A stretch of 64,000 nucleotides of DNA from Dehalococcoidia bacterium (GTDB taxonomy: Bacteria > Chloroflexota > Dehalococcoidia > Lucifugimonadales > VXLM01). This document shows positions 3,839-59,649 of this stretch, in pieces. Position numbers and translations under genes: made by a program. The notes beneath the pieces are model-generated. The model was not told where the DNA came from. It worked only from the letters and a program-made list of their open reading frames with translations, and did no database searches. Location: positions 2,376,491-2,440,490 of the forward strand of contig OZ244816.1 in NCBI GenBank assembly GCA_965220255.1, given 5' to 3'. Numbering within the stretch: position 1 is the first letter of the stretch; every line of letters starts with the position of its first letter.

Positions 3839-4882
3839 ATGCAAAAAATGCTCGCCGCGCTCTATAACGGCGTCGACACCGTCGAGATCAAGCGAATCAA
3901 ACGCCTCGAACCCGGCCCCGGGGATGCTCTCGTCAGGGTCCGCGCAGAGGGCATCTGCGGCTCCGATCTCAACCAGTACCGCAAGCTGACCGAGCCTGAG
4001 ACCCTTCCCGCCGGACACGAGACCGCTGGGGAGATTGTCGAGGTAGGCGAAGGGGTCGATCAGGCAAGGATCGGGCAGCGAGTCGCCGTCGAGGTCGTCG
4101 GACACGGCAAGGCCTGCCTGACCTGCTGGTACTGCCGTCAGGGCCACTACCGGAACTGCGATGACAAGGGCGACTATGCCGGCGGCGGCTTCGCAGAGTA
4201 CGTCACCCGCAATGCCGTCGCCTGCTACCCCCTCGGCAAGACCATGACGTGGGAGGAGGGCGCCCTCGTCGAGCCACTCGCCGTCTCAATTCGAGGGATG
4301 CGTCGCGGAAGCCTTATCGCTGGCGACACGGTCGTCGTGCTTGGCGCCGGTAATATCGGCCTGACCGCGATCGCTGCCGCGAGAGCCCTGGGAGCAGGCA
4401 CGATCATCGCTACCGCAAGACACGCCCAGCAGGCCGACTTGGCCAAGCAGTTAGGGGCTGACGTGGTGCTTGATCCCAACGATGCTGACGCGACAGCTGC
4501 CGTCGAAGACCTCACCGGTGGTCTGGGTGCCGACATCACCGTCGAGACCGTCGGAGGCTTCGGCAGCAACGCAACCCTCGTACAGGCCGTGGAGATGACC
4601 CGCGTCATGGGCCGGATCGTCGTCCTCGGCGTCTTCCACGACCCCGTCCTGACCGACTGGATGGAGCCGCTCCTCAAAGAGCAGTCGTTCATCTTCTCCG
4701 TCTGCTACGGCATCATGGACGGCAGGCACGACTTCGAAATGGCCATCGACCTCATGTCATCCGGCAAGATCGACCTAAAGCCCATGGTCACCCACACCTA
4801 CCCTCTCGCCGAAATGCCCCAAGCCCTGGCCACCGCCTATGACAAGTCCACCGGCTCCGTCAAAGTCCAGCTCCGAATGTGA
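3839..4882 (+). CDS. Zn-dependent MDR dehydrogenase (threonine/sorbitol dehydrogenase-like)
   Basis: GICGSDL zinc-ligand motif, structural-zinc Cys cluster CLTCWYCRQGHYRNC and Rossmann motif VLGAGNIGL. ATG at 3839 is preceded by GGAGG. The ORF-track start at 3758 is probably too far upstream. Confidence 0.85.
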   Translation: MQKMLAALYNGVDTVEIKRIKRLEPGPGDALVRVRAEGICGSDLNQYRKLTEPETLPAGHETAGEIVEVGEGVDQARIGQRVAVEVVGHGKACLTCWYCRQGHYRNCDDKGDYAGGGFAEYVTRNAVACYPLGKTMTWEEGALVEPLAVSIRGMRRGSLIAGDTVVVLGAGNIGLTAIAAARALGAGTIIATARHAQQADLAKQLGADVVLDPNDADATAAVEDLTGGLGADITVETVGGFGSNATLVQAVEMTRVMGRIVVLGVFHDPVLTDWMEPLLKEQSFIFSVCYGIMDGRHDFEMAIDLMSSGKIDLKPMVTHTYPLAEMPQALATAYDKSTGSVKVQLRM

Positions 4883-4977
4883 CTGATAGTACCACCGTCA
4901 TACCCGCGTACACGGGTATCCAGAGGAGAGGGGTAAGGGGCGGTGAGTGTCACCCCCTTGTGTCTATCCACCACCTC

Positions 4978-5862
4978 TTACCTCACGTTCCGAATCCCCT
5001 CGGCCAACCACTTGTCCCGAACCGTCGCCACCTCGATCGCAACGTCCTCCACCGTCCCCGGATGGTTCGTCGCCAGCACCTCCATCGTCCACGCGCCGTC
5101 GAACCCAATGTCGTCGAGCGCCTGTCCGAACGAGTCGAAGTCGATAACCCCGTGACCCGGCGGCAGGTGATCATCCTGATCCGAGGAGCCATCCTGGATG
5201 TGCAGCGCATACAGACGCTCCGACGCGATCCGGGTCTCCTCTGCCACATCCAGCTCCCGCAGCCGCGTGTGCCCGATGTCATGGCATATCCCGACGTGCT
5301 CCGCCGGTAGGTCTGACATGAACGACCGCAACTCCTGCATTGTCTCTAATGGACGGGCGGGGAACCCCATCTTCCCCACGAGGTTTTCGAGCGCCATACG
5401 AACTCCCGTCTCCTCGCTGACCCTCACCAGTTCAGAGATTGAGCGGTGCGCCTGCTCCGTGGCCGCTCCAACATTCTCCCTCGTGTACAACGGCACGTCC
5501 GGCGATGTCGGACTCCCCGACGGATGCACGATGATAGTCCGGCCCCCCACCTCGGCATGAAACCTCATCGCTGCCGCGACCTGCGCGACGCTGGCCTCCC
5601 GCTCGCCACCATCGAAGCTGGCGAGGTTAATGCTCTTGAACGGCGCGTGAATCGTATGGGGAAGCAGCCCCGAACTCTCTAGCGCTTCCCTGTATGGAGC
5701 AGGGTCGGGCGGCCCTTCCTCCCACTCGACTCCCTCCGCGATAAGCTCCACCTCGGAGTAACCGCTCGCTGCGACAGATCTCACCGCCTCGATCGGATCC
5801 CCGACGAAGTCTCCCGTCTCGTCGGTCATGTACAGTGCGCTCGCAATACTATACTTCGGCAT
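4978..5862 (-). CDS. Sugar phosphate isomerase/epimerase (xylose isomerase-like TIM barrel) family protein
   Basis: 294 aa with a family-typical pattern: GYSEVEL, IHAPF, IIVHPSG, LALEN, GICHDIGH. Confidence 0.75.
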   Translation of the reverse strand: MPKYSIASALYMTDETGDFVGDPIEAVRSVAASGYSEVELIAEGVEWEEGPPDPAPYREALESSGLLPHTIHAPFKSINLASFDGGEREASVAQVAAAMRFHAEVGGRTIIVHPSGSPTSPDVPLYTRENVGAATEQAHRSISELVRVSEETGVRMALENLVGKMGFPARPLETMQELRSFMSDLPAEHVGICHDIGHTRLRELDVAEETRIASERLYALHIQDGSSDQDDHLPPGHGVIDFDSFGQALDDIGFDGAWTMEVLATNHPGTVEDVAIEVATVRDKWLAEGIRNVR

Positions 5863-6276: not shown

Positions 6277-8742
6277 TTACATGCGCACCCGCCTGCCCCT
6301 CGGATCGTAGGGAGCCGTCAGCCGCACCTTGGCCGGAAACCGTTCCGTCGCAACCTCCAGCTCATACGCCCCGCCTCGGACCCACTTGTTCGTGACCACG
6401 TCAGGGTCCTCCACGTATCCCATGCCCACCGACACGCCCAGAGTGTGCCCAAACGCCCCCGAGGTCGTCCTGCCCACCAGCCGCCCGTCGCGCCAGATCG
6501 GCTCGTTGCCCAATAGCAATGGCTCCGGGTCTTCGAGCGTGAACATTGCCAGCCGTCGCGTCACGCCCTCATCGCGCTGACGGAGCACCGCGTCGCGTCC
6601 GATGAAGTCGACTCCCTTGTCTAAAGCGACGGCGAAGGTCAGACCCGCCTCCACGACCGTGTCCACGTCACAGATATCGTGCCCCCACGACCGGTACGCC
6701 TTCTCCAGTCGCAAGGTCTCCATCGCGTGGAACCCTGCTGGAAGCAGACCATGCTTCGGCGCGACCTCCATGATCCGGTCGAAAACGTGCCCGGCAAACT
6801 CCGTCGGGATATACAGTTCCCATCCAAGCTCCCCGACATACGTCACCCTCGACGCCCGCACCGGCGCATACCCGATGGCGATCTCTTTGGAGGCCATGAA
6901 CGGAAACGCCTCATTCGAAACGTCCGCGTCGGTAACTTCCGAGAGAAGGGCCCGCGAGTTCGGCCCCATCAGCCCGAGCACCGCATACGACGAGGAAACA
7001 TCGGTCAGGAATGCGTGGGAATCGCTTGGGATGTTGTCCCGTATCCACCCGAAGTCGCGCCTTGCGGTTGAGCCTGCCGTCACGATCAGGTACTCCTCGT
7101 CCCCCGTCCGCGTCACCGTCAGGTCGGACTCGAATCCGCCCCGCGCATTCAGCATCGCCGTGTACACGATCCTGCCGGGATCGACCGCCATGTCCCCCGC
7201 GAAGATCGTCTGAGCTACTCGCTCTGCCTCCCTGCCTTGCAGGAGGAACTTCGCGAATGAGGTCTGGTCGAACAGCCCCACGCTCTCACGTACCGCTCGG
7301 TGCTCCTCGGCAGAGTAGGGGAACCAGTTCTGCCGTCCGAAGGAGTACCCGTACACCGGCTCAACGCCCTCAGGCGCGTACCAGTTGGGACGCTCCCAAC
7401 CTCCCACCTCGCCGAAACAGGCACCCATCGAAGCCAGCTTGTCGTGGAACGGCGACTGCCGCGCTCCCCGTGCCGTCTCCATCTGCTTGTGCGGCCAGTG
7501 CATCCCGTACAGGGTGCCGACCGATTCGATCGTCCGATCATGCAAGTACGTCTTGACGTTCTGGAACTGATGGAACCGGCGAATGTCCACTTCCCACAGG
7601 TCCATAGTGGGCTCGCCCGCCGCGATCCACTCCGCCACGGCCTTGCCCACGCCCGGCGCCGCCGCAATGCCCGTCGAGTTCAGCCCCGTAGCCAGGTAGA
7701 AATTCCTCAGGTCGGGCGACTCGCCCATCAGGTACCTGTCGTCCGGCGTGAAACTCTCGGCGCTCACGCAGAACCGGTTGATACCCGCCTCCGCCATCGC
7801 CGGAACACGATGCACTGCGTTCTCCCAGAACACCTTGAAGTGCTCCCAATCAGGTTCGAGCAACCCGAAGTGATAGTCCTCCGGTATCGCGTCGTCGCCC
7901 CACGGCTTGGCCGTCGTCTCGAACCCGCCCATCAGGATCGCTCCCTGCTCTTCCGCGTCTCTCCGGAAGTATATTTGCTCGTCCGGGTCCCGCAGCCCCG
8001 CAATGTCCTCGGGAATCCCCATCTTGTTGGTCACCAGCCACATGTGCTCCGCCGCGTGCAGCGGAATGTCGACCCCCGCCCTCAGCCCAAGCTGCCTCGA
8101 CCACATCCCCGCCGCGCAAACGACCACCTCGCACTCGATGTCCCCTCGGTCCGTCGAAACGCCGGTCACCGCTCCAGCTTCCTGCGTCACGCCGGTCACC
8201 TGTACGTTCTCGATGATCCGCGTTCCACCCATCTCCGCCCCTCGTGCCACCGAAAGCGCCGCGCTTGCCGGGAGCGCCTGGCCGTCCTTGGGGATGTAGA
8301 TGCCCCCCTTCAGGTCCTCCGTCCTCATGAGCGGCCACATCGTGCCGGCGTCCTCCGCCGTGATCTCATGGATATCTATTCCGTAGCACCTGCCCAGCGA
8401 CAGGATGCGCTTGAGTTCGTCCATCCGGTCATCCGTCGTGGTCACAGTCACGCTGCCCGACGCACGAAATCCCGTCGGAATTCCCGTCTCCTCGTGCAGC
8501 GTCGAATACAGCTGGACTCCCACGCGGTTGATGTCGATCATCGTTCTCGTCGCCCTGAGCTGCGTCACCATCCCCGCCGCGTGCCACGTCGACCCGCCCG
8601 CAACGGTCTTGCGCTCCAGCACCACAACGTCATTCCACCCCAGCTTCGTCAGGTAATACGCAACGCTGCATCCCACGATGCCCCCGCCGATGATGACCAC
8701 TCTCGCCCTATCCGGAATGTTTTCCACGGCTCTTATCTCCAT
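6277..8742 (-). CDS. FAD-dependent oxidoreductase fused to a GcvT-type aminomethyltransferase domain (dimethylglycine/sarcosine dehydrogenase family)
   Basis: N-terminal dinucleotide motif VVIIGGGIVGCS, DAO-like body and C-terminal GcvT-like folate-binding region. Start is ATG at 8742 (MEIRAV) or GTG at 8781. Confidence 0.85.
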   Translation of the reverse strand: MEIRAVENIPDRARVVIIGGGIVGCSVAYYLTKLGWNDVVVLERKTVAGGSTWHAAGMVTQLRATRTMIDINRVGVQLYSTLHEETGIPTGFRASGSVTVTTTDDRMDELKRILSLGRCYGIDIHEITAEDAGTMWPLMRTEDLKGGIYIPKDGQALPASAALSVARGAEMGGTRIIENVQVTGVTQEAGAVTGVSTDRGDIECEVVVCAAGMWSRQLGLRAGVDIPLHAAEHMWLVTNKMGIPEDIAGLRDPDEQIYFRRDAEEQGAILMGGFETTAKPWGDDAIPEDYHFGLLEPDWEHFKVFWENAVHRVPAMAEAGINRFCVSAESFTPDDRYLMGESPDLRNFYLATGLNSTGIAAAPGVGKAVAEWIAAGEPTMDLWEVDIRRFHQFQNVKTYLHDRTIESVGTLYGMHWPHKQMETARGARQSPFHDKLASMGACFGEVGGWERPNWYAPEGVEPVYGYSFGRQNWFPYSAEEHRAVRESVGLFDQTSFAKFLLQGREAERVAQTIFAGDMAVDPGRIVYTAMLNARGGFESDLTVTRTGDEEYLIVTAGSTARRDFGWIRDNIPSDSHAFLTDVSSSYAVLGLMGPNSRALLSEVTDADVSNEAFPFMASKEIAIGYAPVRASRVTYVGELGWELYIPTEFAGHVFDRIMEVAPKHGLLPAGFHAMETLRLEKAYRSWGHDICDVDTVVEAGLTFAVALDKGVDFIGRDAVLRQRDEGVTRRLAMFTLEDPEPLLLGNEPIWRDGRLVGRTTSGAFGHTLGVSVGMGYVEDPDVVTNKWVRGGAYELEVATERFPAKVRLTAPYDPRGRRVRM

Positions 8743-9590: not shown

Positions 9591-12017
9591 TCATCCACCT
9601 GGCGAGAGGCTCTGTCTCGTCTCCGCGCCCGCCTCGATCTTGTTCCAGCTATAGAGCATCGGGATGAAGCCGACATCCGCCCAGGTAGACGACTGGTCGG
9701 CGAAATGTGAACTCGCCGGATGCCCTGAGGCGCCAAACGGCACGATCCAACGCGAGTTGTCCCAGTCGCTCAGGTCGTAGATGTACCGCGCGACGGACGA
9801 CCCGGCGATGCCGAATGGCTCGGCGTGCGAGTAGCTTGCGGCCAGGGGCGTGTCGCCGTCTCCGCCGAGCGGCATCACGGGGCCTTCTAGTTCCTTCGCC
9901 CAAGAGTAGGCGTTGGACAGCCAGTGGGGCCGGTTCGTCCGGTGAATGGCTCCCCACGTCCACTTGCTCATGTCGTCGCCAAGCCGTTCCGACAGGTACT
10001 CGACCGCGCTCCCAAGCGCCTCTGCCATGAGCGAACTCCATGTCGCACCGTCTGGCAGGAACGACGAGTCGCCGGCATCCGCCATGCGAACGAACTGGGC
10101 CTTGAGCAGCGAGACGTGATGGGGCGCGCCGCGTCCGCCCGCGCCAAGCGCGTAGTCCGCCAGCGGTCCGAGAAGTCCTCTCAATATCGTGTCGTCGAGA
10201 TGGTGCCGGAATGTGCTGTAGAGGGTCGGGCCGACCGCGTCCACGTCCATGCTCCCATCCCACGCCGTGAGAATCTCCTTCGCCGCAGCACAACGCTCGT
10301 CGGCGGGCTCCACGTTTGCCAAGAGCTTACTGTAGGCAAGACCCGGGATAGACACCCTCTCGGCGTGAACGTCACCCATGTCCTCGACCGTCGCGCTCTG
10401 TATCTCGACTAGCCGGTCATAGATCCGTCGAGCGCGGTGCTCCGTCGCGTACTGGACACTGATGTAGTGGGGAAAATCGTCCCCTACCTGCTTGTTGTTC
10501 GCCGTGACGATGAACCCGTTCTCAGGATTCCGAATGCGCGGCATCTCCTCGAACGGGATGAACCCGTCCCACTCGTGCTCACCCGTCCAGCCCGGCACAG
10601 GCAGCCAGGCGTTGGCCATATTCCGTACCGGCACCTTCCCCCTAGTGAGGTACGCGATGTCCCCGTCGACGTCCCCGAAGACGTAGTTGTTGCACGGGTC
10701 TACCCATCCCCTCATCGCCTCATCCATCTCACCCACCGAGCTTGACCGTAATTGCAGCAGCAGCGCCTCGTGTGCGGTGTTCGCACCATCCGTGGCCGTG
10801 TACTTGAAGGCGATCGCCTTCCCGTTGCTCGGCTCCCCAACCACAATGGGTCCGTGATGAGTGGTCGTGACCTCGATCTCCACCGGCTCCGCGCCTCTCA
10901 CCTGGATTGTTTCTGGGTGAGTCTCAGCATGTCTCCAGCTTCCCTTGTACTCGTAGTGGAGCGTTCCCCCTCCCCTGAACGATTCGATGTACATGTCCTG
11001 GTAGTCCGCCGCCGCATGGGTTACGCACCATGCCACGCGGGCGTTGTGACCGAAATGAGGAAACGCCGGACACCCCGGAAACGACAGTCCCATCGCATCG
11101 AACTCGTCGCAGGCGATGTGGTTCTGGTAGTAGACGCTCGGAGTCTCGATGGGACGGTGGGGGTCTCCTGCTATCAGGGGCTTGCCGGACTCCGTTCTGC
11201 TCCCGTGTACGGCCCAGTTGTTGCTGCCTGAGTCGGCATCCGCCATCCCGTCCACGTACTCCGCGCCGGACACGTACTCGCTCAGCACGTCGTAGTTGTC
11301 GCCGAGGTACTCGGCACCCGGCGGAACGATCAGCAGTCCCCCTTCTTCATACTGGGGCATGAGCTCCGCCGCCCGCTCCGGACCGAGCGCGGCCACCATC
11401 TTTGCCCGCCACAGCTTGGCCTCCATGTGACCCATCAACACGTGCCGCGCCTTGAAGACCGCCAGACAGTCATGCGCCGTCCACGTCTCAGGTGACTCGC
11501 CGAGCATCTTGTACTCGACGGGAAGCGACTCTGTCGTATTGAGAAAGCCGTTCACGCCTTCCGCGTATGCCTCGAACATCGCCCGCGTCTCGTCGTTGAT
11601 GGCCGCATAGTCCCGATCAACCGACCGGCGAAGTTGAAACTTCCGCATGAGCACGTCCTGCTCGACCGCGCCCTCGCCCGCAAACTCGGCCCAACGCCCG
11701 TACGCCCATCGGCGGTCGTGGTCCATCTGGAAGAAACGGTCCTGCGCCGTGGCAAACCCCTGGCCGAAGAACGCGTCGTGCGCCGTCGTCGCCTTAACGT
11801 GCGGAATGCCGTAGGCGTCGCGGTATATGGTCACCGGGCCGTCCAGCTCACTGAACGACAGGCTGACATTGACATTAGGAACTGCGGCGTCAAGTGCGTT
11901 TTGGGATATGGTTCGGGTTTCGGACAAGGGACTATTCCTCACATAAGACTGCTGTGGAAGTGCAGTGTAGGAGCATAGCCCTTCCGCGTCAACGCAATAT
12001 ACGTCCCTCCGGCCCAA
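9591..12017 (-). CDS. Penicillin acylase / acyl-homoserine-lactone acylase family Ntn hydrolase
   Basis: YRDAYGIPHV, GFATAQDRFFQMD and the nucleophile region GSNNWAVHG...GKPLIAGDPH. The track start at 12017 is a TTG; GTG at 11942 is an alternative. No obvious signal peptide. Confidence 0.85.
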   Translation of the reverse strand: MGRRDVYCVDAEGLCSYTALPQQSYVRNSPLSETRTISQNALDAAVPNVNVSLSFSELDGPVTIYRDAYGIPHVKATTAHDAFFGQGFATAQDRFFQMDHDRRWAYGRWAEFAGEGAVEQDVLMRKFQLRRSVDRDYAAINDETRAMFEAYAEGVNGFLNTTESLPVEYKMLGESPETWTAHDCLAVFKARHVLMGHMEAKLWRAKMVAALGPERAAELMPQYEEGGLLIVPPGAEYLGDNYDVLSEYVSGAEYVDGMADADSGSNNWAVHGSRTESGKPLIAGDPHRPIETPSVYYQNHIACDEFDAMGLSFPGCPAFPHFGHNARVAWCVTHAAADYQDMYIESFRGGGTLHYEYKGSWRHAETHPETIQVRGAEPVEIEVTTTHHGPIVVGEPSNGKAIAFKYTATDGANTAHEALLLQLRSSSVGEMDEAMRGWVDPCNNYVFGDVDGDIAYLTRGKVPVRNMANAWLPVPGWTGEHEWDGFIPFEEMPRIRNPENGFIVTANNKQVGDDFPHYISVQYATEHRARRIYDRLVEIQSATVEDMGDVHAERVSIPGLAYSKLLANVEPADERCAAAKEILTAWDGSMDVDAVGPTLYSTFRHHLDDTILRGLLGPLADYALGAGGRGAPHHVSLLKAQFVRMADAGDSSFLPDGATWSSLMAEALGSAVEYLSERLGDDMSKWTWGAIHRTNRPHWLSNAYSWAKELEGPVMPLGGDGDTPLAASYSHAEPFGIAGSSVARYIYDLSDWDNSRWIVPFGASGHPASSHFADQSSTWADVGFIPMLYSWNKIEAGAETRQSLSPGG

Positions 12018-12073: not shown

Positions 12074-13249
12074 TTACTGCACGTACACTGCCAACATCCT
12101 GCAATCGTCCGGGTCGGCGCTCGCGGCCGTTTCCAATCTTACACAGGCATTGATGTTCAACTTAGTGCCGCTCGCTGCATTGGCGATCGCCCGCACTTCG
12201 ATCTCTCCTGCCGCGCCAATTGTGCGGCCGCCCACGACACAGGTGATCGTTCCCCCTGGAGTTTCGGTAAATTCACCCTTGCCGTCCTTTTCAAAACCCT
12301 CCAGCACGTTCGGATGAGTGCAGTTGGGATGGCTGGGATAGAGTCTCTCGTCGATAAACCGCAGAAGGGTAGTGGCCGTGAGCTCATCTGGCAAGAAGAT
12401 GTCGATTGCCACGTCTTGAACTGACTCGTCGGTTCCCCCAACAGTTTCGTGGTCAACGACGAATTGGAATGTTCCTCCGGGAGCAACCGTTTCTTCCTGA
12501 GTCTCAATGGCCAGACTGCGCGACACGAACGCCAGCGATGAGCAGTTCAGGGGTTCGCTTGTAATCGCACCGCCTGATCCTGTAACTGCCGAAAGCCTGG
12601 TGCAGTTGTTGGACCAGACGCCTTCATCTTTGGCGACGTTGTCGGTCCGGTATGTCGTGAGCCAGACATCGAGGTTGAGGGTTGTGCCGTCGGCCACGTC
12701 GCCGACTTCAGTCTCAAGAGTGATGGTCCCCTGGGCATTCGTCGCGCGCGTCCCGAGGAGGCAGATCATTGTGCCTCCGGGATCGCCCGTTATTGCTCCC
12801 GCTTCTTGACTCGCAAACCGCTCGAGCTTGCTCGCCTGGCTGCATGCGGGAGTCCCCGGCTCCACTCTCGTTGCGGTCAGTGCGTCAGGCAACTCGATAT
12901 CGACCGTCACCGCACCCGCTTCCGAACTTCCCTGGTTAACGTGGATGATCTTGAAGACTACGGTGTCGCCCTTGGAAATCGAAGTCTTGTCTGCCGTTAT
13001 CGTCGCCGTCATGTCGGGCGGGTCGCGGAAGTCGAGGTGTCCAACGTCGCGGGCAATCCACCAGACCAACCCGGCCAGGGTTGCGATTGAAAGGAAGGCC
13101 AAGATTGAAGTCCACCAGAATACGCCGCCGCGCTTCCTCCACCACACGAGGATACCGATCAGCCCACTGGGCTCCTCCTCGCTGAGCCGTAGCGGCTTTA
13201 TCGGTTCTCTGGATCCTGGACCTACTTCCGGTGTATAACGTTCCGCCAA
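12074..13249 (-). CDS. Membrane-anchored protein with two DUF11/CARDB-like beta-sandwich modules
   Basis: One TM helix, then PPDMTATIT. Two modules of the type TVVFKIIHVNQG...VTVDIELPDALTAT and FQFVVDHETVGG...VAIDIFLPDELTAT. Confidence 0.55.
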   Translation of the reverse strand: MAERYTPEVGPGSREPIKPLRLSEEEPSGLIGILVWWRKRGGVFWWTSILAFLSIATLAGLVWWIARDVGHLDFRDPPDMTATITADKTSISKGDTVVFKIIHVNQGSSEAGAVTVDIELPDALTATRVEPGTPACSQASKLERFASQEAGAITGDPGGTMICLLGTRATNAQGTITLETEVGDVADGTTLNLDVWLTTYRTDNVAKDEGVWSNNCTRLSAVTGSGGAITSEPLNCSSLAFVSRSLAIETQEETVAPGGTFQFVVDHETVGGTDESVQDVAIDIFLPDELTATTLLRFIDERLYPSHPNCTHPNVLEGFEKDGKGEFTETPGGTITCVVGGRTIGAAGEIEVRAIANAASGTKLNINACVRLETAASADPDDCRMLAVYVQ

Positions 13250-51849: not shown

Positions 51850-52187
51850 AATACTTGAAGTATGCGTCGAAGGGGAGTAGTAACGGGAAGCGCACGATAG
51901 AGAACGGGGTATTTTGGTGGAAGCCCCGGCGTGACAGCGACCGCGAACTCGCCCCCGAGCATCCTGCTTGATACCGGACATCGCATCAGGTGTGATTCCG
52001 ACATAGGGCAGGGCGGTCAGGCCCCGTTACGGCCCGGCTCCACGGAGCCATGAGTGTCCTCCAAGCACCCACACAGGGTCTCTCCCCCAAAGTGAGAGAT
52101 ATGGACATGGGTCGGAGGGAACGAGGGTGGTACCGCGGGAATTGTCTAATCAGCAGTCCCGTCCCTTTGGTGGGACGGGACTTTTTG
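51850..52187 (+). promoter_or_regulatory. T-box leader (tRNA-sensing riboswitch), probable Leu (CUC) specifier, controlling the ilv-leu operon
   Basis: Stem I elements: GAAGGGGAGTAGTA, AG bay AGAGA at 51899-51903 and distal loop TGGTGGAAG. Candidate specifier GAA-CTC-G has CTC at 51948-51950. The conserved T-box sequence GGGTGGTACCGCG lies at 52125-52137, and a terminator follows directly. Confidence 0.75.
52155..52187 (+). terminator. Intrinsic terminator of the T-box leader
   Basis: An 11-bp perfect stem agtcccgtccc / gggacgggact with loop tttggt, followed by TTTTTG. Confidence 0.8.
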
Positions 52188-52243
52188 CTTAGTACGACAG
52201 AACGGTGGAAGAAAATACTCCGAGCAAGGGAGGTGCGAAGATC

Positions 52244-53974
52244 ATGGGAATCCGACTGAATGGATCACAGTTACTGTGCGAAAGCCTAGTACGTGAGGGC
52301 GTCGTAGAGATCTTCGGTCTTCCCGGCGGAGCAATCCTGCCTCTCTACCAGACCCTGCCGGAGTACCTGCAGCTCCGACACATCCTGACTCGTCATGAGC
52401 AGGGAGCCGCCCACGCCGCCGACGGTTACGCCCGCGTAACCGGCAGAGTAGGCGTATGCTGGGCCACGTCCGGCCCCGGAGCCACCAACCTCATAACCGG
52501 CATCGCGACCGCCCAGATGGATTCCGTCCCTGTCGTCGCCGTCGTCGGACAGGTGGCGCGCGCCTCCATCGGGACCGACGCCTTCCAGGAAACCGACACC
52601 ACAGGCATCACTCTCCCCATCACCAAGCACAATACGCTGGTGATGGATCCCATAGAGATACCGCAGGTGGTCAAGGAGGCTTTTCACATCGCCAACACCG
52701 GCAGGCCCGGCCCTGTCGTCATCGACGTGCCCAAGGATGTGCAGACCGAGGAGGTTGAGCTTCCCTACGAGACGTTCGATGAGTACTACGAAGCCCTGGA
52801 GATCGACCTGCCCGGCTACAAGCCGAACCTGAAGGGCCACAACAGCCAGATCAAAAAGGCCGTCAATCTGATAGAAGAGGCCGAACGGCCTGTCATCCTA
52901 GCCGGTCACGGTATCGTCTTCTCCGGGGCGTATGAAGAGTTGCGCGAACTGGCTGAGAAGGCGCAAATTCCGGTCATAACGACCCTGCTCGGCATAAGCT
53001 CGTTCCCCGACGATCACATCCTTTGTGTCGGTATGCCGGGAATGCACGGCATGGCCTACGCCAGCATCGCCATCGAGGAGGCCGACCTGCTCATAGCCCT
53101 CGGCATGCGCTTCGACGACCGAATCACCGGCAAGCCGAGCGCCTTCGCTCGGAGGTCCAAGAAGATTCACATCGACATCGACCCCTCCGAAATCGGCAAG
53201 AACGTCGAGGTCGACGTACCTATCGTGGGAGACCTCAAACGTGTGCTGACGAAGCTCAACCCGCAGGTCAGCGAAAACACCCACACCGAATGGCTCCAGC
53301 GCATCGAGGAACTCAAGGCGGAGCATCCTTCTCACAACATTCGCGACGCGAACCAACTCCTGCCGCAGCTCATCGTCAAGGAGCTGTCCGAGGTTACGGA
53401 AGGCGACGCCATCGTCGTGACCGGCGTCGGCCAGCACCAGATGTGGGCCGCCCAGCACTTCACCTACAAGTACCCCTGCTCCTTCATCACGTCGGGCGGC
53501 TCCGGCGCGATGGGCTACGAGGTGCCCGGCGCGATGGGCGTACAGGTCGGCGCGCCCGGCAAGGCCGTATGGTCGGTTGCGGGAGATGGTGGATTCCAGA
53601 TGACCATGTGCGAATTAGCCACCATCGTCGAGAACCGTCTGCCCGTGAAGTTCGCCATCATCAACAACAACGTGCTCGGTATGGTCCACCAGTGGCAGGA
53701 ATTCTTCTACGACAAGAGCTACGTTGCCACGGCCTACACCGCGAACCCTGACTTCGTGAAGCTCGCCGAGGCCTTCGGAATCAAGGCCATGCGCGTCACC
53801 GACAAGGTGCAGGTGCGAGGAGCCATCGAAGAGGCTATGGCGCACGACGGACCCGTAGTCATCGACTTCATCGTCGAGGAAGAGGAGCGCGTCTATCCCA
53901 TGATCAAGGCGGGAGGCACCATCGAGGACCTCGTCGAGGAACCCGACTTCGCCCCGTGGGAGGTGGCACGATGA
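52244..53974 (+). CDS. ilvB: Acetolactate synthase (acetohydroxyacid synthase) large subunit
   Basis: ThDP-enzyme pattern: FGLPGGAILPLY, HEQGAAHAADGYAR, GPGATN, and the ThDP motif GDGGFQM...NN. ATG at 52244 is preceded by AAGGGAGG. Confidence 0.95.
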   Translation: MGIRLNGSQLLCESLVREGVVEIFGLPGGAILPLYQTLPEYLQLRHILTRHEQGAAHAADGYARVTGRVGVCWATSGPGATNLITGIATAQMDSVPVVAVVGQVARASIGTDAFQETDTTGITLPITKHNTLVMDPIEIPQVVKEAFHIANTGRPGPVVIDVPKDVQTEEVELPYETFDEYYEALEIDLPGYKPNLKGHNSQIKKAVNLIEEAERPVILAGHGIVFSGAYEELRELAEKAQIPVITTLLGISSFPDDHILCVGMPGMHGMAYASIAIEEADLLIALGMRFDDRITGKPSAFARRSKKIHIDIDPSEIGKNVEVDVPIVGDLKRVLTKLNPQVSENTHTEWLQRIEELKAEHPSHNIRDANQLLPQLIVKELSEVTEGDAIVVTGVGQHQMWAAQHFTYKYPCSFITSGGSGAMGYEVPGAMGVQVGAPGKAVWSVAGDGGFQMTMCELATIVENRLPVKFAIINNNVLGMVHQWQEFFYDKSYVATAYTANPDFVKLAEAFGIKAMRVTDKVQVRGAIEEAMAHDGPVVIDFIVEEEERVYPMIKAGGTIEDLVEEPDFAPWEVAR

Positions 53975-54534
53975 CCACGAACGGCACCACCGTCCAGAAC
54001 CATACCATCACCGCCCTCGTGAGAGACAAGCCAGGTGTCCTGAACCGCGTTTCCAGCATGTTCCGCAGGCGCGGGTTCAACATCGTCAGCCTTGCCGTCG
54101 GCCACAGCGAAGAGCCGGACCTCTCGCGTATGACCTTTGTCGTCGAGGGCGACAAGCGCACCATCGAGCAGGTCAACAAGCACCTGCACAAGCTCATCGA
54201 CGTCATCCGCGTCTCCGAGGTGTCCAGCGACAATGTCGTATCGCGTGAGCTCGCCCTCATCAAGATCAGGGCCACCAGTGAGACCCGCTCAGAGATCATC
54301 CAGATCGTCGAGATATTCAACGCAAAGATAGCAGGAGTCTCCCCGGACCACCTGATCGTCGAAGTCACCGGCGACCAGGACAAGATCGAGTCCCTCCTGG
54401 GTCTCGTGAAACGCTTCGGCATAATGGAAGTTATGCGCACCGGCACCATCGTCATGGAACGATGGATAGGCCACATGCACGAACAACAGACGGGAGCCAG
54501 GGGTCGCAACTGGGGCGAAGCCGCATCTGTGTAA
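53971..54534 (+). CDS. ilvN: Acetolactate synthase small (regulatory, ACT-domain) subunit
   Basis: [38 protein letters not shown] overlap with ilvB. Confidence 0.9.
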
Positions 54535-54569
54535 TCTCAAACCCAACAAAACGGAGTCTAAACAAAAAA

Positions 54570-55571
54570 ATGCCAGCAGAGATGTTCTACGACAACGACG
54601 CCGACCTGTCCCTCTTGGAGGACAAGACCATCGGCATCATCGGATACGGAAGCCAGGGTCACGCCCACGCCCTCAACTGCCATGACAACGGCCTCAACGT
54701 GATGGTCGGACTGTACGAGGGCAGCAGAAGCCGTGAAAAGGCCGAGAGCGACGGCCTGCGCGTCGGAACCGTCGACGAGACGGCCGCGGAGTCCGACATC
54801 GTCATGGTGCTCATCCCCGACCACCTCCAGGCCGATGTCTACAATCAGGAGATCGCCCCGCACATGGGCGCGGGCAAGACGCTCATGTTCGCCCATGGCT
54901 TCAATATCCACTATGAGACCATCACCCCATCGGAGAACATCGATGTCTCCATGGTCGCGCCCAAGGCCCCCGGTCACCGGATGCGCGAGGTCTTTACGCG
55001 CGGCTCCGGCGTGCCCGGACTGCTGGCAATCCATCAGGACGCCTCCGGTTCCGCCCGCGACATCGGCCTGGCTTACGCCAGGGGAGTGGGCTGCACACGA
55101 GCCGGAGTCCTAACGACCACCTTCAAGGAGGAGACCGAGACCGACCTTTTCGGCGAGCAGACCATCCTCTGCGGCGGCGTAACCGCCCTCATCAAGGCGG
55201 GTTACGAGGTCCTCGTCGAGGCGGGGTACCAGCCGGAGTCGGCCTACTTCGAGTGCATGCACGAGCTCAAGCTCATCGTCGATCTGCTCTACCAGGGCGG
55301 CATGGAGTACATGCGCTATTCCGTCAGCGATACCGCCGAGTACGGCGATCTGACCCGGGGCCCGGTCGTCGTCGACGAGCGCGTCAAGGAGAACATGAAG
55401 AAGGTACTCGAGGCCGTTCAGGACGGCACCTTCGCCCGCGAGTGGATAGCGGAGAACGACGAGGGCCGCCACCGCTTCACCCAACTCCGCAAAGAAGCCG
55501 CCGAGCACTCCATCGAAAAGGTCGGCGCGGAACTCCGTGGCATGATGAGTTTCCTAAAGGATGCCGACTAA
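54570..55571 (+). CDS. ilvC: Ketol-acid reductoisomerase
   Basis: [43 protein letters not shown]. Confidence 0.95.
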
Positions 55572-55595: not shown

Positions 55596-56022
55596 ATGGG
55601 AGAAGGCATTCGAAATCCGGAGGTTCGTTGAAACCGACACGGAGAGCGTCGTCGCTCTGTGGACCAACGTCTTCGGCTACGACGGACTGCATAACGACCC
55701 TCTGCTATCGATCAAGCAAAAGACCTCCCGCGACCCCGACCTCTTCCTGGTCGCAATCACCGAAGGCCGGGTGATAGGCACCGTAATGGGCGGCTACGAC
55801 GGACACCGAGGCTGGGTCTACTCACTGGCAGTCTACAACCGCGAGCGACACAGAGGCATCGGAACGGCATTGGTAGAGAATATCGAGCAGTCCCTGAAAG
55901 CCCTCGGATGCCTGAAAGTGAATCTGCAGGTTGTTGGCTCGAATTCAAACGTTGTCGACTTTTACAAAAAACTAGGGTTCTCGGTCGAAGACCGCATAAG
56001 CATGGGCAAAAGACTGTATTGA
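55596..56022 (+). CDS. GNAT-family N-acetyltransferase with a frame-disrupted or non-canonical 5' end
   Basis: GNAT motif A RGIGTALV and C-terminal FYKKLGF. The well-placed SD+ATG (GGAGG at 55581, ATG at 55596) is in a different frame from the GNAT body. That body is open from 55594 with no ATG/GTG/TTG before 55771. Confidence 0.55.
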
Positions 56023-56033
56023 GAAGGTCACGT

Positions 56034-56984
56034 ATGACGACCGTGAGACACCAGGCAAATCGCGGAGGAAGTGCTGTTCCGATAAGCATGGGCGGTCTCT
56101 TGGGCATCGAGCCTGAGTTCTCTCCGAATGCCATCCCTGTGCTGTCGGAGAGTGTAGTCAATGTCGCGTCCGTGCCGCAGAGGAGCCCCCTGCGCTATCC
56201 CGGTGGCAAGACTTGGCTTGTTCCTCAGATACGTAATTGGCTAGCCGGTTTGGATACTCGTCCGGAAGTGTTTGTAGAACCTTTCGCTGGTGGCGCTATT
56301 GCGTCTCTAACGGCCGTGATGGACGGACTGGCGGATCGTGCGGTGCTGTGTGAAATCGATCCCGACATCGCTCTCCTGTGGCGATGCATCATCGACCATT
56401 CTGAGCGGCTGGCGCAACTGGTAGAGGTGTTCGAAGCGACCAATGAAAACGTGCAGGCGATCTTGGGCGAGACTGATGGTGATGAAGTCAACACCGCATT
56501 CAAAACGTTGCTGCGAAACAGGATTAGTCGTGGCGGCATTCTTGCCAAGGGCGCCTCGATAATGAAGCAAGGTGAAAATGGAAGCGGCGTCGCGTCCCGC
56601 TGGTATCCCAGAACTCTAGCTACTCGCATCCGCGCCATCGGAAGCTATGCTGACCGGATCGAGTTCATTCATGGCGATGGCATGAGCCTCATCGACCAGG
56701 GTAAGGATAGCCCAACGACCGCGTTCTTCATCGACCCCCCGTACACCGCCGCAGGAAAGCGAGCCGGAAGACGCCTCTACAACCATAATGATATCGACCA
56801 TGAAGACCTGTTCGAGCGCATGGCCACCGTAAAAGGTCCCTTCATGATGACATACGACGAGAGTGATGAAATCATCCGAATGGCGCGGGGCCATAGGTTC
56901 TGCATGTCTAAGGTGCCTATGAAGAATACGCACCACGACCTTTTGTATGAGTTGCTCATCACGTCGAGTGAGCTGTCGGCGTGA
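56034..56984 (+). CDS. D12-class (Dam-like, alpha-group) N6-adenine DNA methyltransferase
   Basis: PLRYPGGKTWL, SAM motif VEPFAGGA and catalytic DPPY at 56733-56744. An alternative start at Met 56088 is possible. Confidence 0.85.
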   Translation: MTTVRHQANRGGSAVPISMGGLLGIEPEFSPNAIPVLSESVVNVASVPQRSPLRYPGGKTWLVPQIRNWLAGLDTRPEVFVEPFAGGAIASLTAVMDGLADRAVLCEIDPDIALLWRCIIDHSERLAQLVEVFEATNENVQAILGETDGDEVNTAFKTLLRNRISRGGILAKGASIMKQGENGSGVASRWYPRTLATRIRAIGSYADRIEFIHGDGMSLIDQGKDSPTTAFFIDPPYTAAGKRAGRRLYNHNDIDHEDLFERMATVKGPFMMTYDESDEIIRMARGHRFCMSKVPMKNTHHDLLYELLITSSELSA

Positions 56985-57856
56985 GCAAAACACGCCGTTT
57001 TGGAATAGGAGAGTGGTACGGACATTCTTATGTAGGGCTGACTTCCGACGAGAGGCGAACATATTCCAGTTCCCCGGAAACTCAGCCATGTCCATTTAGG
57101 ATCAAAGGAGGTTCATGCACCAAGAAAGGTGGAGTCTGTTCCTTCCGTCTCTATAGGAACGACGATGGGCTAGCCGTTCCGACACTGGATGACGAAGACG
57201 GATTGCGGGTACTTTGCCCTCGACGATTTGAAGAGGATATGACGATATTTCAGTGGGTCGGTGAGACCGTTCTTGGTACGCCGACACCCGAAATAGTAAC
57301 TGAAGTCGGTTTTCTCAAAGCGGAAGAACGCAATGCTCACGTAGGGCGGATAGATATGGTTCTGGCTAATCGAGGGAATCACTTGTCGAGCCTGGAATGG
57401 TGCGCTCTGGAGATACAGGCGGTCTATTTCTCAGGCAGGAGCATGACCGCTGAGTTCCATAGCATCGGAGCGTTTGGAGGTGAAGGGCCGCCATTTCCGG
57501 GACACACACGGAGACCGGACTATCGAAGTAGCGGGCCTAAGCGATTGATGCCCCAGTTGCAAACCAAGGTGCCTACGCTCCGACGGTGGGGAAAGAAGAT
57601 GGCGGTTGTAGTCGATAAACACTTCTTCGCGTCATTGGGACATATGGAAGAGGTTGATGACCTCTCGAGCGGAGACATTGCTTGGTTCACAGTGGATTTT
57701 GAAGAAACCGACGATGGCAGAAGTTTCCAATTGGTTCGAGACAAAGTTCATGTCACGACGTTGGAGAGGGCTACGGAGGGCCTTACCGGAGGCTATCCTG
57801 TGACATTGACTGAATTTGAAAGAGGCATACTGTCCAAGCTGAGTAGTACGAGGTAA
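56981..57856 (+). CDS. NotI-family (PD-(D/E)xK with N-terminal Cys4 metal site) type II restriction endonuclease
   Basis: CPF...C...GVC...LCPRRF four-Cys pattern. GRIDMVL and LEIQAVYFSG resemble my recollection of NotI (CPF..C..GVC..CPNR; LEIQTMDFHGS). GTGA overlap with the methylase stop. Confidence 0.6.
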   Translation: MSKTRRFGIGEWYGHSYVGLTSDERRTYSSSPETQPCPFRIKGGSCTKKGGVCSFRLYRNDDGLAVPTLDDEDGLRVLCPRRFEEDMTIFQWVGETVLGTPTPEIVTEVGFLKAEERNAHVGRIDMVLANRGNHLSSLEWCALEIQAVYFSGRSMTAEFHSIGAFGGEGPPFPGHTRRPDYRSSGPKRLMPQLQTKVPTLRRWGKKMAVVVDKHFFASLGHMEEVDDLSSGDIAWFTVDFEETDDGRSFQLVRDKVHVTTLERATEGLTGGYPVTLTEFERGILSKLSSTR

Positions 57857-58018
57857 GACGAATGCACACAACGGAGGAATCCCACGTAGTTCGCCGGCAA
57901 TGGCGGGTCCTGGCAGGGCTCGGCATGGCGGACTGCGTTGCCCTTAGGTAACGGCCCCTCACTAACCGACCGAAGGGTTAGAGACACGTACAAGCCTGCC
58001 GTACAAGGGAGAAATACC

Positions 58019-59581
58019 ATGACAACCAAAGATAACGTACTGATCTTCGACACCACGCTGCGCGACGGCGAGCAGTCCGCCGGAATCGGCCTGACGCTCG
58101 ACGAGAAGATGGAGATCGCAAAGCAGCTCGAACGCCTCGGCGTTGACATCATCGAGGCGGGATTCGCCGCAAGCTCACCGGGCGACTTCGAGGCGGTCTC
58201 CGCCATAGCCAAGGAGGTCCGCGTGCCTACCATCGCATCGCTCGCACGCTGCGTCCCCGGCGACATCGACGCCGCGTGGGAGGCTATCAAGGACGCCGCC
58301 AGTCCTCGCATCCACACGTTCATATCGAGTTCCGACAGCCACCTGATGGACCTCCTGCGAAAGAACCCGGAGGAGGTGCTCGATCAGGCTGTCTCATCCG
58401 TCGAGCGCGCCCGAAACCTCTGCGACAACGTCGAGTTCTCGCCGATGGACGCCACGCGCACGGACATCGAGTACCTGTACCGGATGCTCGAGGCCTGCAT
58501 CAACGCCGGCGCTACCACCGTGAACATTCCCGATACCGTCGGGTATGCGCTCCCGACCGAGTTCGCTGAGCGCATCCGCCTCATCAAGGAGAACGTCCCG
58601 AACATCGACAAGGCCATAATCAGCGTCCACTGCCACAACGACCTCGGCAACGCCGCGCCGAACAGCATCGCGGCCGTCATAGAAGGCGCTCGACAGGTCG
58701 AGGGATGCATCAACGGCCTCGGCGAGCGCGCGGGCAATGCCTCCCTTGAAGAGGTCATCATGACCATCGAGACCCGTGGTGATGCCCTCGGCGTGACGAC
58801 CAATATCGACACCCGGCAGATCTACCGCACGAGCCGACTCGTCAGCGACATCACCGGGTTCCCCGTTCAGCCCAATAAGGCCATTGTCGGGGCGAACGCC
58901 TTTCGCCATGCCTCCGGCATCCACCAGGACGGCGTCATCAAGTCCCGCACCACCTTCGAGATCATGGACCCGCACACCGTCGGCTGGCCGAGCAGCAGCC
59001 TCGTGCTGGGCAAGCTGAGCGGACGCGCCGGTCTCCGGTCTCGGCTGGAAGAGTTGGGCTTCACGCTCGACCAGTCGCAGCTCGACCTGGCATTCCAGGC
59101 ATTCAAGGAACTGGCCGACCGCAAGCGCGAGGTGACCGACGCCGACCTCATGTCGCTCATGTCCATGCAGCGCCGCCGTCAGGACGTCGTGCAGGTCTAC
59201 AAGATGGAGCGAGTACAGGTCACTTGCGGCAACGGTGAGATTCCCACCGCCACCGTGCAACTCGTCAACCCGGACGGCGAGACAGTTACCGACGCCGCCA
59301 CCGGAGCCGGACCGGTCGACGCCGTCTATCAGGCCATCAACCGCATCGTCGGTGTGCCGAACACCCTGACCGAGTTCCGCGTGGACGCCGTCACCGAGGG
59401 CGTCGACGCGCTGGGCGACGTGACCATCCGCATCCGGCAGAACGGCAACACCTTTGTCGGGCGCGGCTCCGACACCGACATCATCGTCGCCAGCGCGAGG
59501 GCTTACATGAACGCCCTCAACCGCGCCCTCGCCGAGATGGAGGACCAGAAGCTCCCGATGGAGCCAGTTCCGACGAGCTAG
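58019..59581 (+). CDS. leuA: 2-isopropylmalate synthase
   Basis: IFDTTLRDGEQSAG, HCHNDLGNA and the C-terminal LeuA dimerisation/regulatory domain. ATG at 58019 is preceded by AAGGGAG. Confidence 0.95.
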   Translation: MTTKDNVLIFDTTLRDGEQSAGIGLTLDEKMEIAKQLERLGVDIIEAGFAASSPGDFEAVSAIAKEVRVPTIASLARCVPGDIDAAWEAIKDAASPRIHTFISSSDSHLMDLLRKNPEEVLDQAVSSVERARNLCDNVEFSPMDATRTDIEYLYRMLEACINAGATTVNIPDTVGYALPTEFAERIRLIKENVPNIDKAIISVHCHNDLGNAAPNSIAAVIEGARQVEGCINGLGERAGNASLEEVIMTIETRGDALGVTTNIDTRQIYRTSRLVSDITGFPVQPNKAIVGANAFRHASGIHQDGVIKSRTTFEIMDPHTVGWPSSSLVLGKLSGRAGLRSRLEELGFTLDQSQLDLAFQAFKELADRKREVTDADLMSLMSMQRRRQDVVQVYKMERVQVTCGNGEIPTATVQLVNPDGETVTDAATGAGPVDAVYQAINRIVGVPNTLTEFRVDAVTEGVDALGDVTIRIRQNGNTFVGRGSDTDIIVASARAYMNALNRALAEMEDQKLPMEPVPTS

Positions 59582-59620: not shown

Positions 59621-59649
59621 GTAGGGGCAGGTTTCAAACCTGCCCCTGC
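59621..59649. repeat. Family B palindromic hairpin repeat, probable bidirectional terminator
   Basis: gtaggggcaggtttcaaacctgcccctgc, between convergent leuA and the VOC gene. Confidence 0.65.

Follow-up and report, generated by a model that had tools for sequence, protein, structure and literature searches.

Restriction-modification (R-M) units that carry no mobility genes have been described as insertions with a long target duplication overlapping the 3' ends of genes, or as allelic substitutions (Furuta, Abe and Kobayashi 2010, PMC2853133). The restriction endonuclease NotI combines a Fe-Cys4 motif with an active site in which Q takes the place of K (PMC4081073). For leuA, the actinobacterial LEU element joins an upstream open reading frame (ORF) to a structured RNA, with Leu codons pairing to the leuA Shine-Dalgarno (SD) sequence (Seliverstov et al. 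2005, PMC1262725), and T-boxes are documented in Chloroflexi (PMC2494555). Here we compare with these systems a methylase gene (M) and a nuclease gene (R) that lie between ilvC and leuA of an ilv-leu operon in a Dehalococcoidia bacterium (GenBank assembly GCA_965220255.1, contig OZ244816.1, positions 2,376,491 to 2,440,490; this 64-kb stretch is called the window below). We read the pair as an old, horizontally acquired Type II R-M cassette in a recurrent slot, likely carried on the mRNA of the T-box operon, and we hold this reading as a whole to be probable. The host belongs to a marine, SAR202-like clade of the Dehalococcoidia; the closest ilvC in genome collections is 78% identical, and its nearer relatives are found in marine metagenomes. 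The related loci or genomes that were compared with the window are designated by L-numbers, and the features of the locus are listed in Table 1.

Insertion of the methylase-nuclease pair between ilvC and leuA

We surveyed the 27 loci in which ilvC and the leuA leader, a conserved element described below, are both present. The slot between them is empty in 14, where ilvC ends 11-90 nucleotides (nt) before the leader, and contains 680-2586 nt of cargo in the other 13, which represent at least eight gene sets. All of the cargo genes lie on the operon strand and are tightly packed. The set found in the window, a GNAT acetyltransferase gene followed by M and R, also occurs in L081, L165, L166 and L167, with an additional DUF2283 gene in L081. 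Elsewhere the slot holds GNAT and DUF952 (L170), a HAD hydrolase (L085 and L103), a HAD hydrolase and an ORF of 133 amino acids (aa; L001), small ORFs (L002), an ORF of 184 aa and a PIN toxin (L007), or a coiled-coil protein and a bPH-domain protein (L016). The nearest lineages without M-R are L086/87 (ilvC 88% aa identity), with no cargo, and L085/L103 (86%), with the HAD gene.

The M-R pair also occurs alone, in other surroundings. It stands between luciferase-like monooxygenase genes and the gene of a flavin adenine dinucleotide (FAD)-dependent enzyme in L082, L168 and L169, and after a major facilitator superfamily (MFS) gene in L083/84. Nucleotide homology between the contexts runs from about 35 codons into M to the stop codon of R and is confined to the two genes, so the mobile unit is essentially the two ORFs. 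No homology was detected outside the ORFs that would represent a conserved upstream promoter region travelling with the cassette, and no integrase, transposase or flanking repeat accompanies the pair. A direct-repeat search around GNAT-M-R in the slot likewise found no significant target duplication or terminal repeats. Where the pair follows three luciferase-like monooxygenases (6001-6886 in L082, 6900-7785 in L168/L169), it is co-oriented with a metabolic cluster, and the stop codon of R is only 9 nt from the next gene, that of the FAD-dependent enzyme.

The composition of the pair is atypical as well. The 1.8-kb R-M stretch has a guanine-cytosine (GC) content of 53.6% against a window mean of 59.7%, is the lowest-GC segment of that length in the window, and falls in the lowest 0.4% of same-size windows. 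GC content at third codon positions (GC3) is 0.51 in R, 0.63 in M and 0.69 in GNAT, compared to 0.85 in ilvC, 0.86 in leuA and 0.71-0.82 in other nearby genes, and the low GC3 of the M-R cassette is retained in every host and context. The counts from which the original prediction derived a clearly lower GC (29 of 60 at 57301-57360 in R, 37 of 60 at 58081-58140 in leuA) proved exact. With empty sites in relatives, M-R in unrelated contexts and this composition, its claim of a foreign insertion into the contiguous ilvBNC-leuA order is borne out: the relatives do not all carry the genes, the composition is not host-like, and the pair was acquired horizontally. The prediction had, however, counted two inserted genes; the R-M pair is there, but the GNAT gene ahead of it makes three.

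The arrangement is not recent. The synonymous divergence (dS) between the window and L081 is the same in the cassette as in its flanks, and the ratio of nonsynonymous to synonymous divergence (dN/dS) of the cassette stands at 0.13-0.16, which marks the module as old, passed on vertically and subject to purifying selection (Table 1). The order ilvC-GNAT-M-R-leader-leuA is common to five genomes (the window, L081, L165, L166 and L167), and the cassette was already present in the common ancestor of these carriers. Together with L170 they form a star-like clade of six (window, L081/L167, L165/L166, L170) whose ilvC and leuA are about 90% identical in nucleotide sequence. Old age (dS of about 0.5) and purifying selection would also be expected if GNAT-M-R were ancestral, the contiguous ilvC-leuA order being the outcome of repeated loss and the low GC a sign of weak expression rather than foreign origin; a GC3 that is low in all hosts could reflect selection instead of recent transfer. 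We consider this explanation extremely improbable, because 14 loci distributed over the whole clade, the next-closest lineage L086/87 among them, have empty sites, unrelated cargo occupies the same point in other lineages, M-R is found in no fewer than two unrelated contexts that share homology only across the ORFs, and L170, within the carrier clade, has DUF952 in its place.

The L170 locus is syntenic on both flanks and has GNAT followed by DUF952 where the five other members of the clade carry M-R. This indicates that GNAT and M-R arrived separately, in at least two steps, and that the slot 3' of GNAT is polymorphic. The location had been thought to protect the module from deletion; this is not supported, as members of the clade have exchanged the content of the slot (M-R versus DUF952) and empty alleles are available for recombination.

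In L081, a direct repeat of 50 nt of the ilvC 3' end (4237-4286 and 4529-4578) flanks the gene of the 70-aa DUF2283 protein. The two copies are identical at 47 of 50 positions (z 31.7), which corresponds to an insertion accompanied by a long duplication of the target that regenerated the ilvC terminus. The junction between ilvN and ilvC is variable too: L081 has an insertion sequence (IS; DDE_Tnp_1, 1446-2648), L085 has a PDDEXK_3 gene (4715-5059) that is also present in L103, and L166 has a gap of 740 nt (515-1254).

Table 1. Features of the ilv-leu locus in the window, with divergence between the window and L081
Feature	Position	Strand	Basis or detail	dS	dN/dS
Leu-specific T-box leader	51858-52169	+	RF00230, 85.5 bits, E 9.6e-18, full-length match		
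Intrinsic terminator of the T-box	52155-52182	+	Hairpin and T-run, terminator scan		
ilvB	52205-53974	+	Pfam TPP_enzyme_N/M/C		
ilvN	53956-54534	+	Pfam ALS_ss_C/ACT		
ilvC	54567-55571	+	Pfam KARI_N/C	0.53	0.04
12-codon ATG ORF	55596-55631	+	GGAGG SD sequence 5'; one frame off GNAT		
YpeA-like GNAT acetyltransferase, older cargo gene	55603-56022	+	NF002959, 173.8 bits; Pfam Acetyltransf_1	0.50	0.27
D12-class N6-adenine DNA methyltransferase (M), 316 aa	56034-56984	+	PF02086, E 8.9e-12	0.55	0.16
NotI-family PD-(D/E)XK restriction endonuclease (R), 291 aa	56981-57856	+	PF12183, E 2.8e-66	0.54	0.13
Leader small ORF, 29 codons (MHTTEESHVVRRQWRVLAGLGMADCVALR)	57862-57951	+	Starts 5 nt after R stop		
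Leader hairpin, inside the small ORF	57884-57938	+	12-bp outer stem 57884-57895/57927-57938 and inner helices		
CCCUU tail including a CUU Leu codon, candidate anti-SD	57941-57945	+	Complementary to AAGGG of the leuA SD, 58005-58012		
leuA (2-isopropylmalate synthase), final operon gene	58019-59581	+	Pfam HMGL-like, HCS_D2, LeuA_dimer	0.41	0.06
Perfect palindromic GC-rich hairpin, 25 nt	59623-59647	.	Between convergent leuA and glyoxalase genes		
PIG-L gene				0.49	0.09

The nuclease, the methylase and their companion GNAT gene

The nuclease R aligns with PF12183 (223.7 bits) from residue 33 to 251, on positions 13-238 of the 238 of the model. Its AlphaFold model (pLDDT, the predicted local distance difference test, 84.7) was compared with PDB using Foldseek, and NotI (3c25 and 3bvq; E 1.9e-8 to 7e-7, template modelling score 0.58-0.63, 15% identity) was the sole significant fold match, the next standing at E 0.035. 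Sequence and profile searches of PDB with R gave no hit at all, NotI included. Among 18 diverse homologues, C46, C53, C79, D125, E144 and Q146 are invariant and C37 is conserved in at least 90%. These four cysteines and the D125...E144-x-Q146 arrangement fit the published description of NotI (PMC4081073), a likeness by motif description and not residue by residue.

The methylase M matches PF02086 with 45.7 bits (cut-off 22) and the solved adenine methylase PDB 7m6b with E 2.4e-9. It contains LRYPGGK at the N-terminus, EPFAGGA (FxGxG-like, for S-adenosylmethionine) and, after the target-recognition region, FFIDPPY (DPPY), and its N-terminus is preceded by a variable extension of about 45 aa. 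In PADLOC it matches MTase_II and also PD-Lambda-5_B (E 3.6e-46). An assignment of M as a Dam orthologue was rejected, as its score against TIGR00571 (dam) is 41.2 bits and the NCBIfam cut-off is 114.85.

The two genes overlap by GTGA, in which the GTG start of R is at 56981 and the TGA stop of M at 56982-56984; the overlap and the gene coordinates given for the pair in the original prediction were exact on re-checking. All nine loci examined, from three genomic contexts, keep the M-R order and the 4-nt overlap. Judged by these adjacent, co-inherited genes, the pair probably constitutes a minimal Type II R-M cassette. Since the partner of R is an adenine methylase and the NotI site GCGGCCGC contains no A, the specificity of the pair would have to differ from that of NotI, and R is unlikely to cleave GCGGCCGC. 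The most depleted 6-mer of the window, AAGCTT (2 observed, 21.5 expected), was discarded as a candidate recognition site, being equally rare in L170, L085 and L004, which are non-carriers. Its rarity in relatives without this R-M pair suggests other restriction pressure in the clade. CCGCGG and CTCGAG are under-represented in the window as well.

Long vertical residence in a housekeeping operon would suit a domesticated pair that no longer acts as a defence or selfish R-M system, for example one made up of an epigenetic methylase and a nuclease that is inactive or repurposed, and R has no match among the PADLOC nuclease models. We regard domestication as improbable, given that purifying selection on R is at least as strong as on M (dN/dS 0.13 versus 0.16), that D125/E144/Q146 and the four cysteines show no or almost no variation among the 18 homologues, and that the order and overlap of the genes are kept in every context. 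The pair is predicted to encode active enzymes. It belongs to a large uncharacterised subfamily, with approximately 2,900 homologues of R, and an adenine methylase partnered with a nuclease of NotI fold could bring a new specificity.

The GNAT gene that precedes the pair has no in-frame ATG, GTG or TTG until codon 57, and its start is probably the ATC at 55615; the product on record at NCBI for the orthologue in L170 begins at the ATC codon. The 12-codon ORF overlaps this region (Table 1), and a stretch of 30 nt here, ATGGGAGAAGGCATTCGAAATCCGGAGGTT, is identical in all six genomes of the clade despite a dS of about 0.5. Translation may begin at AUC, by reinitiation or through a +1 frameshift. 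A frameshifted pseudogene is unlikely, because the start region is identical in the six genomes, dN/dS is 0.27 and the L170 product starts at ATC.

Transcription of the cassette and the leader of leuA

The specifier position of the T-box upstream of ilvB reads, from the alignment, GAA-CUC-G and corresponds to Leu (CUC). Orthologous T-boxes upstream of ilvB in L001, L004, L010, L085 and L167 score 93.4-111.4 bits, above the gathering threshold of RF00230, so T-box control of the ilv-leu operon is probably ancestral in this lineage. On the + strand, the terminator scan detected no terminator-like site beyond that of the T-box as far as the leuA end, in agreement with the earlier statement that none separates ilvC from the R-M genes. 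The spacers are 24 nt in the ilvC-GNAT region, 11 nt between GNAT and M, -4 nt between M and R, and 5 nt between R and the small ORF of the leader, which leaves little space for an intergenic promoter or terminator. With the tight spacers, the lack of terminator-like sites and the co-orientation of the cargo, co-transcription with the operon is the simplest reading, and a transcript shared by the T-box operon and the R-M genes is, from the sequence, the best and a plausible inference.

Several points weigh against this reading. In other contexts the M-R pair has 600-800 nt of non-coding DNA upstream, and it may normally use a promoter of its own. In L081 the IS splits ilvN from ilvC and should cut the T-box off from ilvC-leuA. 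All five genes behind it (ilvC, GNAT, M, R and leuA) are nevertheless intact, an indication that they can survive this disconnection and be expressed independently of the T-box promoter. Promoters may also be embedded in the coding sequences of ilvC and GNAT or in the 3' portion of R, the sigma-70 consensus used in the promoter scan not being calibrated for Chloroflexota. The T-box of the window itself falls slightly short of the Rfam gathering score (85.5 versus 93 bits), the analysis of palindrome avoidance showed no carrier-specific site for the R-M pair, and R is not matched by any PADLOC model.

Type II R-M systems often carry their own promoters, and the cassette could thus be transcriptionally autonomous, with a promoter in GNAT or ilvC driving M-R and another in the 3' end of R or the leader driving leuA, so that the T-box would be irrelevant and the location accidental. 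The upstream non-coding DNA in other genomes, the intact genes of L081 and a sigma-70-like promoter match within M (56847-56875) are in line with this. That match is the only one found where 3.3 were expected, a count below chance, and spacers of 24, 11, -4 and 5 nt leave hardly any intergenic room. The co-orientation of all slot cargo would have a chance of about 2^-8 if the events were independent and orientation were neutral, and genomes with an empty site, with a leader that starts 11-50 nt after ilvC, leave leuA no space for an ancestral promoter. An autonomous cassette therefore seems unlikely to us.

The 162-nt spacer between R and leuA (57857-58018), in which the original prediction saw no obvious promoter, is not empty. 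By aligning the region 5' of leuA from relatives, we detected a conserved element that comprises a small ORF and a covarying hairpin (Table 1). In an alignment of 22 sequences, 92% of the cells of the hairpin are paired against 81% in shuffles and at most 45% in slid controls, and 12 pairs show compensatory changes, a number reached by none of 500 shuffles. Searched with a covariance model, 172 sources (2.3 Mb) gave hits in 29, each with exactly one copy, always placed directly 5' of leuA on its strand, and none at any other place; copies are recorded for the window, L081, L085, L086, L001-L010, L016, L017, L023, L088-L094, L099-L103, L165-L167 and L170. An Rfam search of the spacer up to E 10 returned no family. 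An ATG-initiated ORF surrounds the hairpin in 23 of 23 leader sequences and is called as a 29-aa gene in L081. The peptides are mostly of 26-48 aa, a few reaching 57-86 aa by an N-terminal extension; they contain much Val and Leu and share the motif ...VV(R/H)R...(V)LAGL...D(C/Y)V(A/T)L. The predicted duplex of the tail with the leuA SD has a mean of -10.3 kcal/mol over 20 loci, compared to -7.9 in shuffles (p 0.003) and -6.4 in coding-sequence windows. Folds with a simulated ribosome mask, modelling a release of the leuA SD that depends on stalling, gave heterogeneous results, and the small ORF contains no run of Leu codons.

In genomes with an empty site the small ORF begins 3-50 nt after ilvC. 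There is thus no room for an ancestral leuA promoter, and the leader would have to act within a polycistronic mRNA. The spacer is the ancestral leader of leuA, through which leuA would keep its own cis-control, probably at the level of translation. It represents a candidate new class of cis-regulatory RNA with a small ORF, with support from covariation. In several genomes the leuA leader and the leuA SD are separated by an inserted short, hairpin-forming repeat of the type CCCTCTCCC...GGGAGAGGG / GGGTGAGGG (L085/L103 about 6870-6990; L007 about 12150-12200; L017 about 11190-11240); it resembles a miniature inverted-repeat transposable element (MITE) or a repetitive extragenic palindromic (REP) element.

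Under the favoured reading of an acquired cassette carried on the operon mRNA, an ancestor of this marine Dehalococcoidia clade would have acquired M-R horizontally, essentially without flanking DNA, and the pair would have landed between the earlier GNAT cargo gene and the leuA leader. M-R would be transcribed as part of the mRNA initiated at the T-box leader. Housekeeping expression of the R-M genes would come from basal read-through of the T-box, with more on limitation of leucyl-tRNA, and the GTGA overlap may couple translation of R to that of M. The leader would control leuA locally, by anti-SD sequestration that is relieved by translation of the small ORF.

We also put forward, tentatively and as a possibility that we rate somewhat below even, that the ilvC-leader junction, and less often the ilvN-ilvC junction, is a dedicated slot for hitch-hiking genes. 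It would repeatedly capture co-oriented cassettes without promoters or terminators (R-M, toxin-antitoxin, GNAT, HAD, DUF952, DUF2283 and others), at least sometimes through a duplicated 3' end of ilvC. Their expression would come from the T-box mRNA, and they would be tolerated thanks to the previously undescribed translational leader of leuA, which would make leuA expression independent of the genes ahead of it. The R-M genes would come under the control of amino-acid starvation.

If expression from the operon mRNA is true, an R-M system, be it defensive or selfish, would be tied to the charging of leucyl-tRNA, and the locus would be a natural case of foreign genes that borrow a riboregulated housekeeping transcript, with the essential leuA expressed through foreign DNA. 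With at least eight co-oriented cargo sets at one junction, it is a tractable case of how operons tolerate or recruit accessory genes in uncultured marine Chloroflexota.

The operon had been described as ending at a hairpin repeat without leuBCD after leuA, and we found the same: the 25-nt hairpin is followed by convergent glyoxalase and PIG-L genes. It is kept in L081, has no second copy in the window and is probably a bidirectional terminator, as a candidate.

Comparison with known systems

With R.NotI, the nuclease shares PF12183 and the fold, and its four N-terminal cysteines and its D...ExQ arrangement with Q replacing K fit the motifs described for NotI. It differs in that the identity is only about 15%, that R has 291 aa and NotI 383 aa, and that R is partnered by an N6-adenine methylase while the NotI site contains no adenine. 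The methylase resembles the Dam-like D12 alpha-group Type II m6A methyltransferases in PF02086, LRYPGGK, EPFAGGA and DPPY; unlike these, it lies under the dam cut-off and carries the variable extension of about 45 aa at its N-terminus. M also matches component B of PD-Lambda-5, a two-gene defence system in PADLOC, whereas component A is absent here and the nuclease has no PADLOC match.

The nearest analogue of the leuA leader is the LEU element (PMC1262725), in which a small ORF upstream likewise goes with a conserved RNA structure and with a Leu-codon sequence complementary to the leuA SD, immediately 5' of leuA. The two have no sequence or Rfam relationship. In contrast to the LEU element, the leader found here is one long hairpin, with no pseudoknot detected and no Leu-codon run, and it lies inside an operon, after ilvC, instead of at the start of the transcript.

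The units described by Furuta, Abe and Kobayashi (2010, PMC2853133) are similar in being R-M genes without integrase or transposase and with a GC content below that of the host, and in showing polymorphism of presence and absence and of substitution at one locus (here M-R versus DUF952). A further likeness is the 50-nt 3'-end duplication, which in our case is found at the neighbouring DUF2283 cargo gene of L081; the M-R pair itself differs in having no flanking target duplication (criterion of direct repeats >30 bp). The site also differs, as it lies in a T-box-controlled biosynthetic operon and is used by many cargo genes other than R-M. The R-M pair thus belongs to known kinds, and what is unusual is its address, a recurrent junction in a biosynthetic operon under riboswitch-like control.

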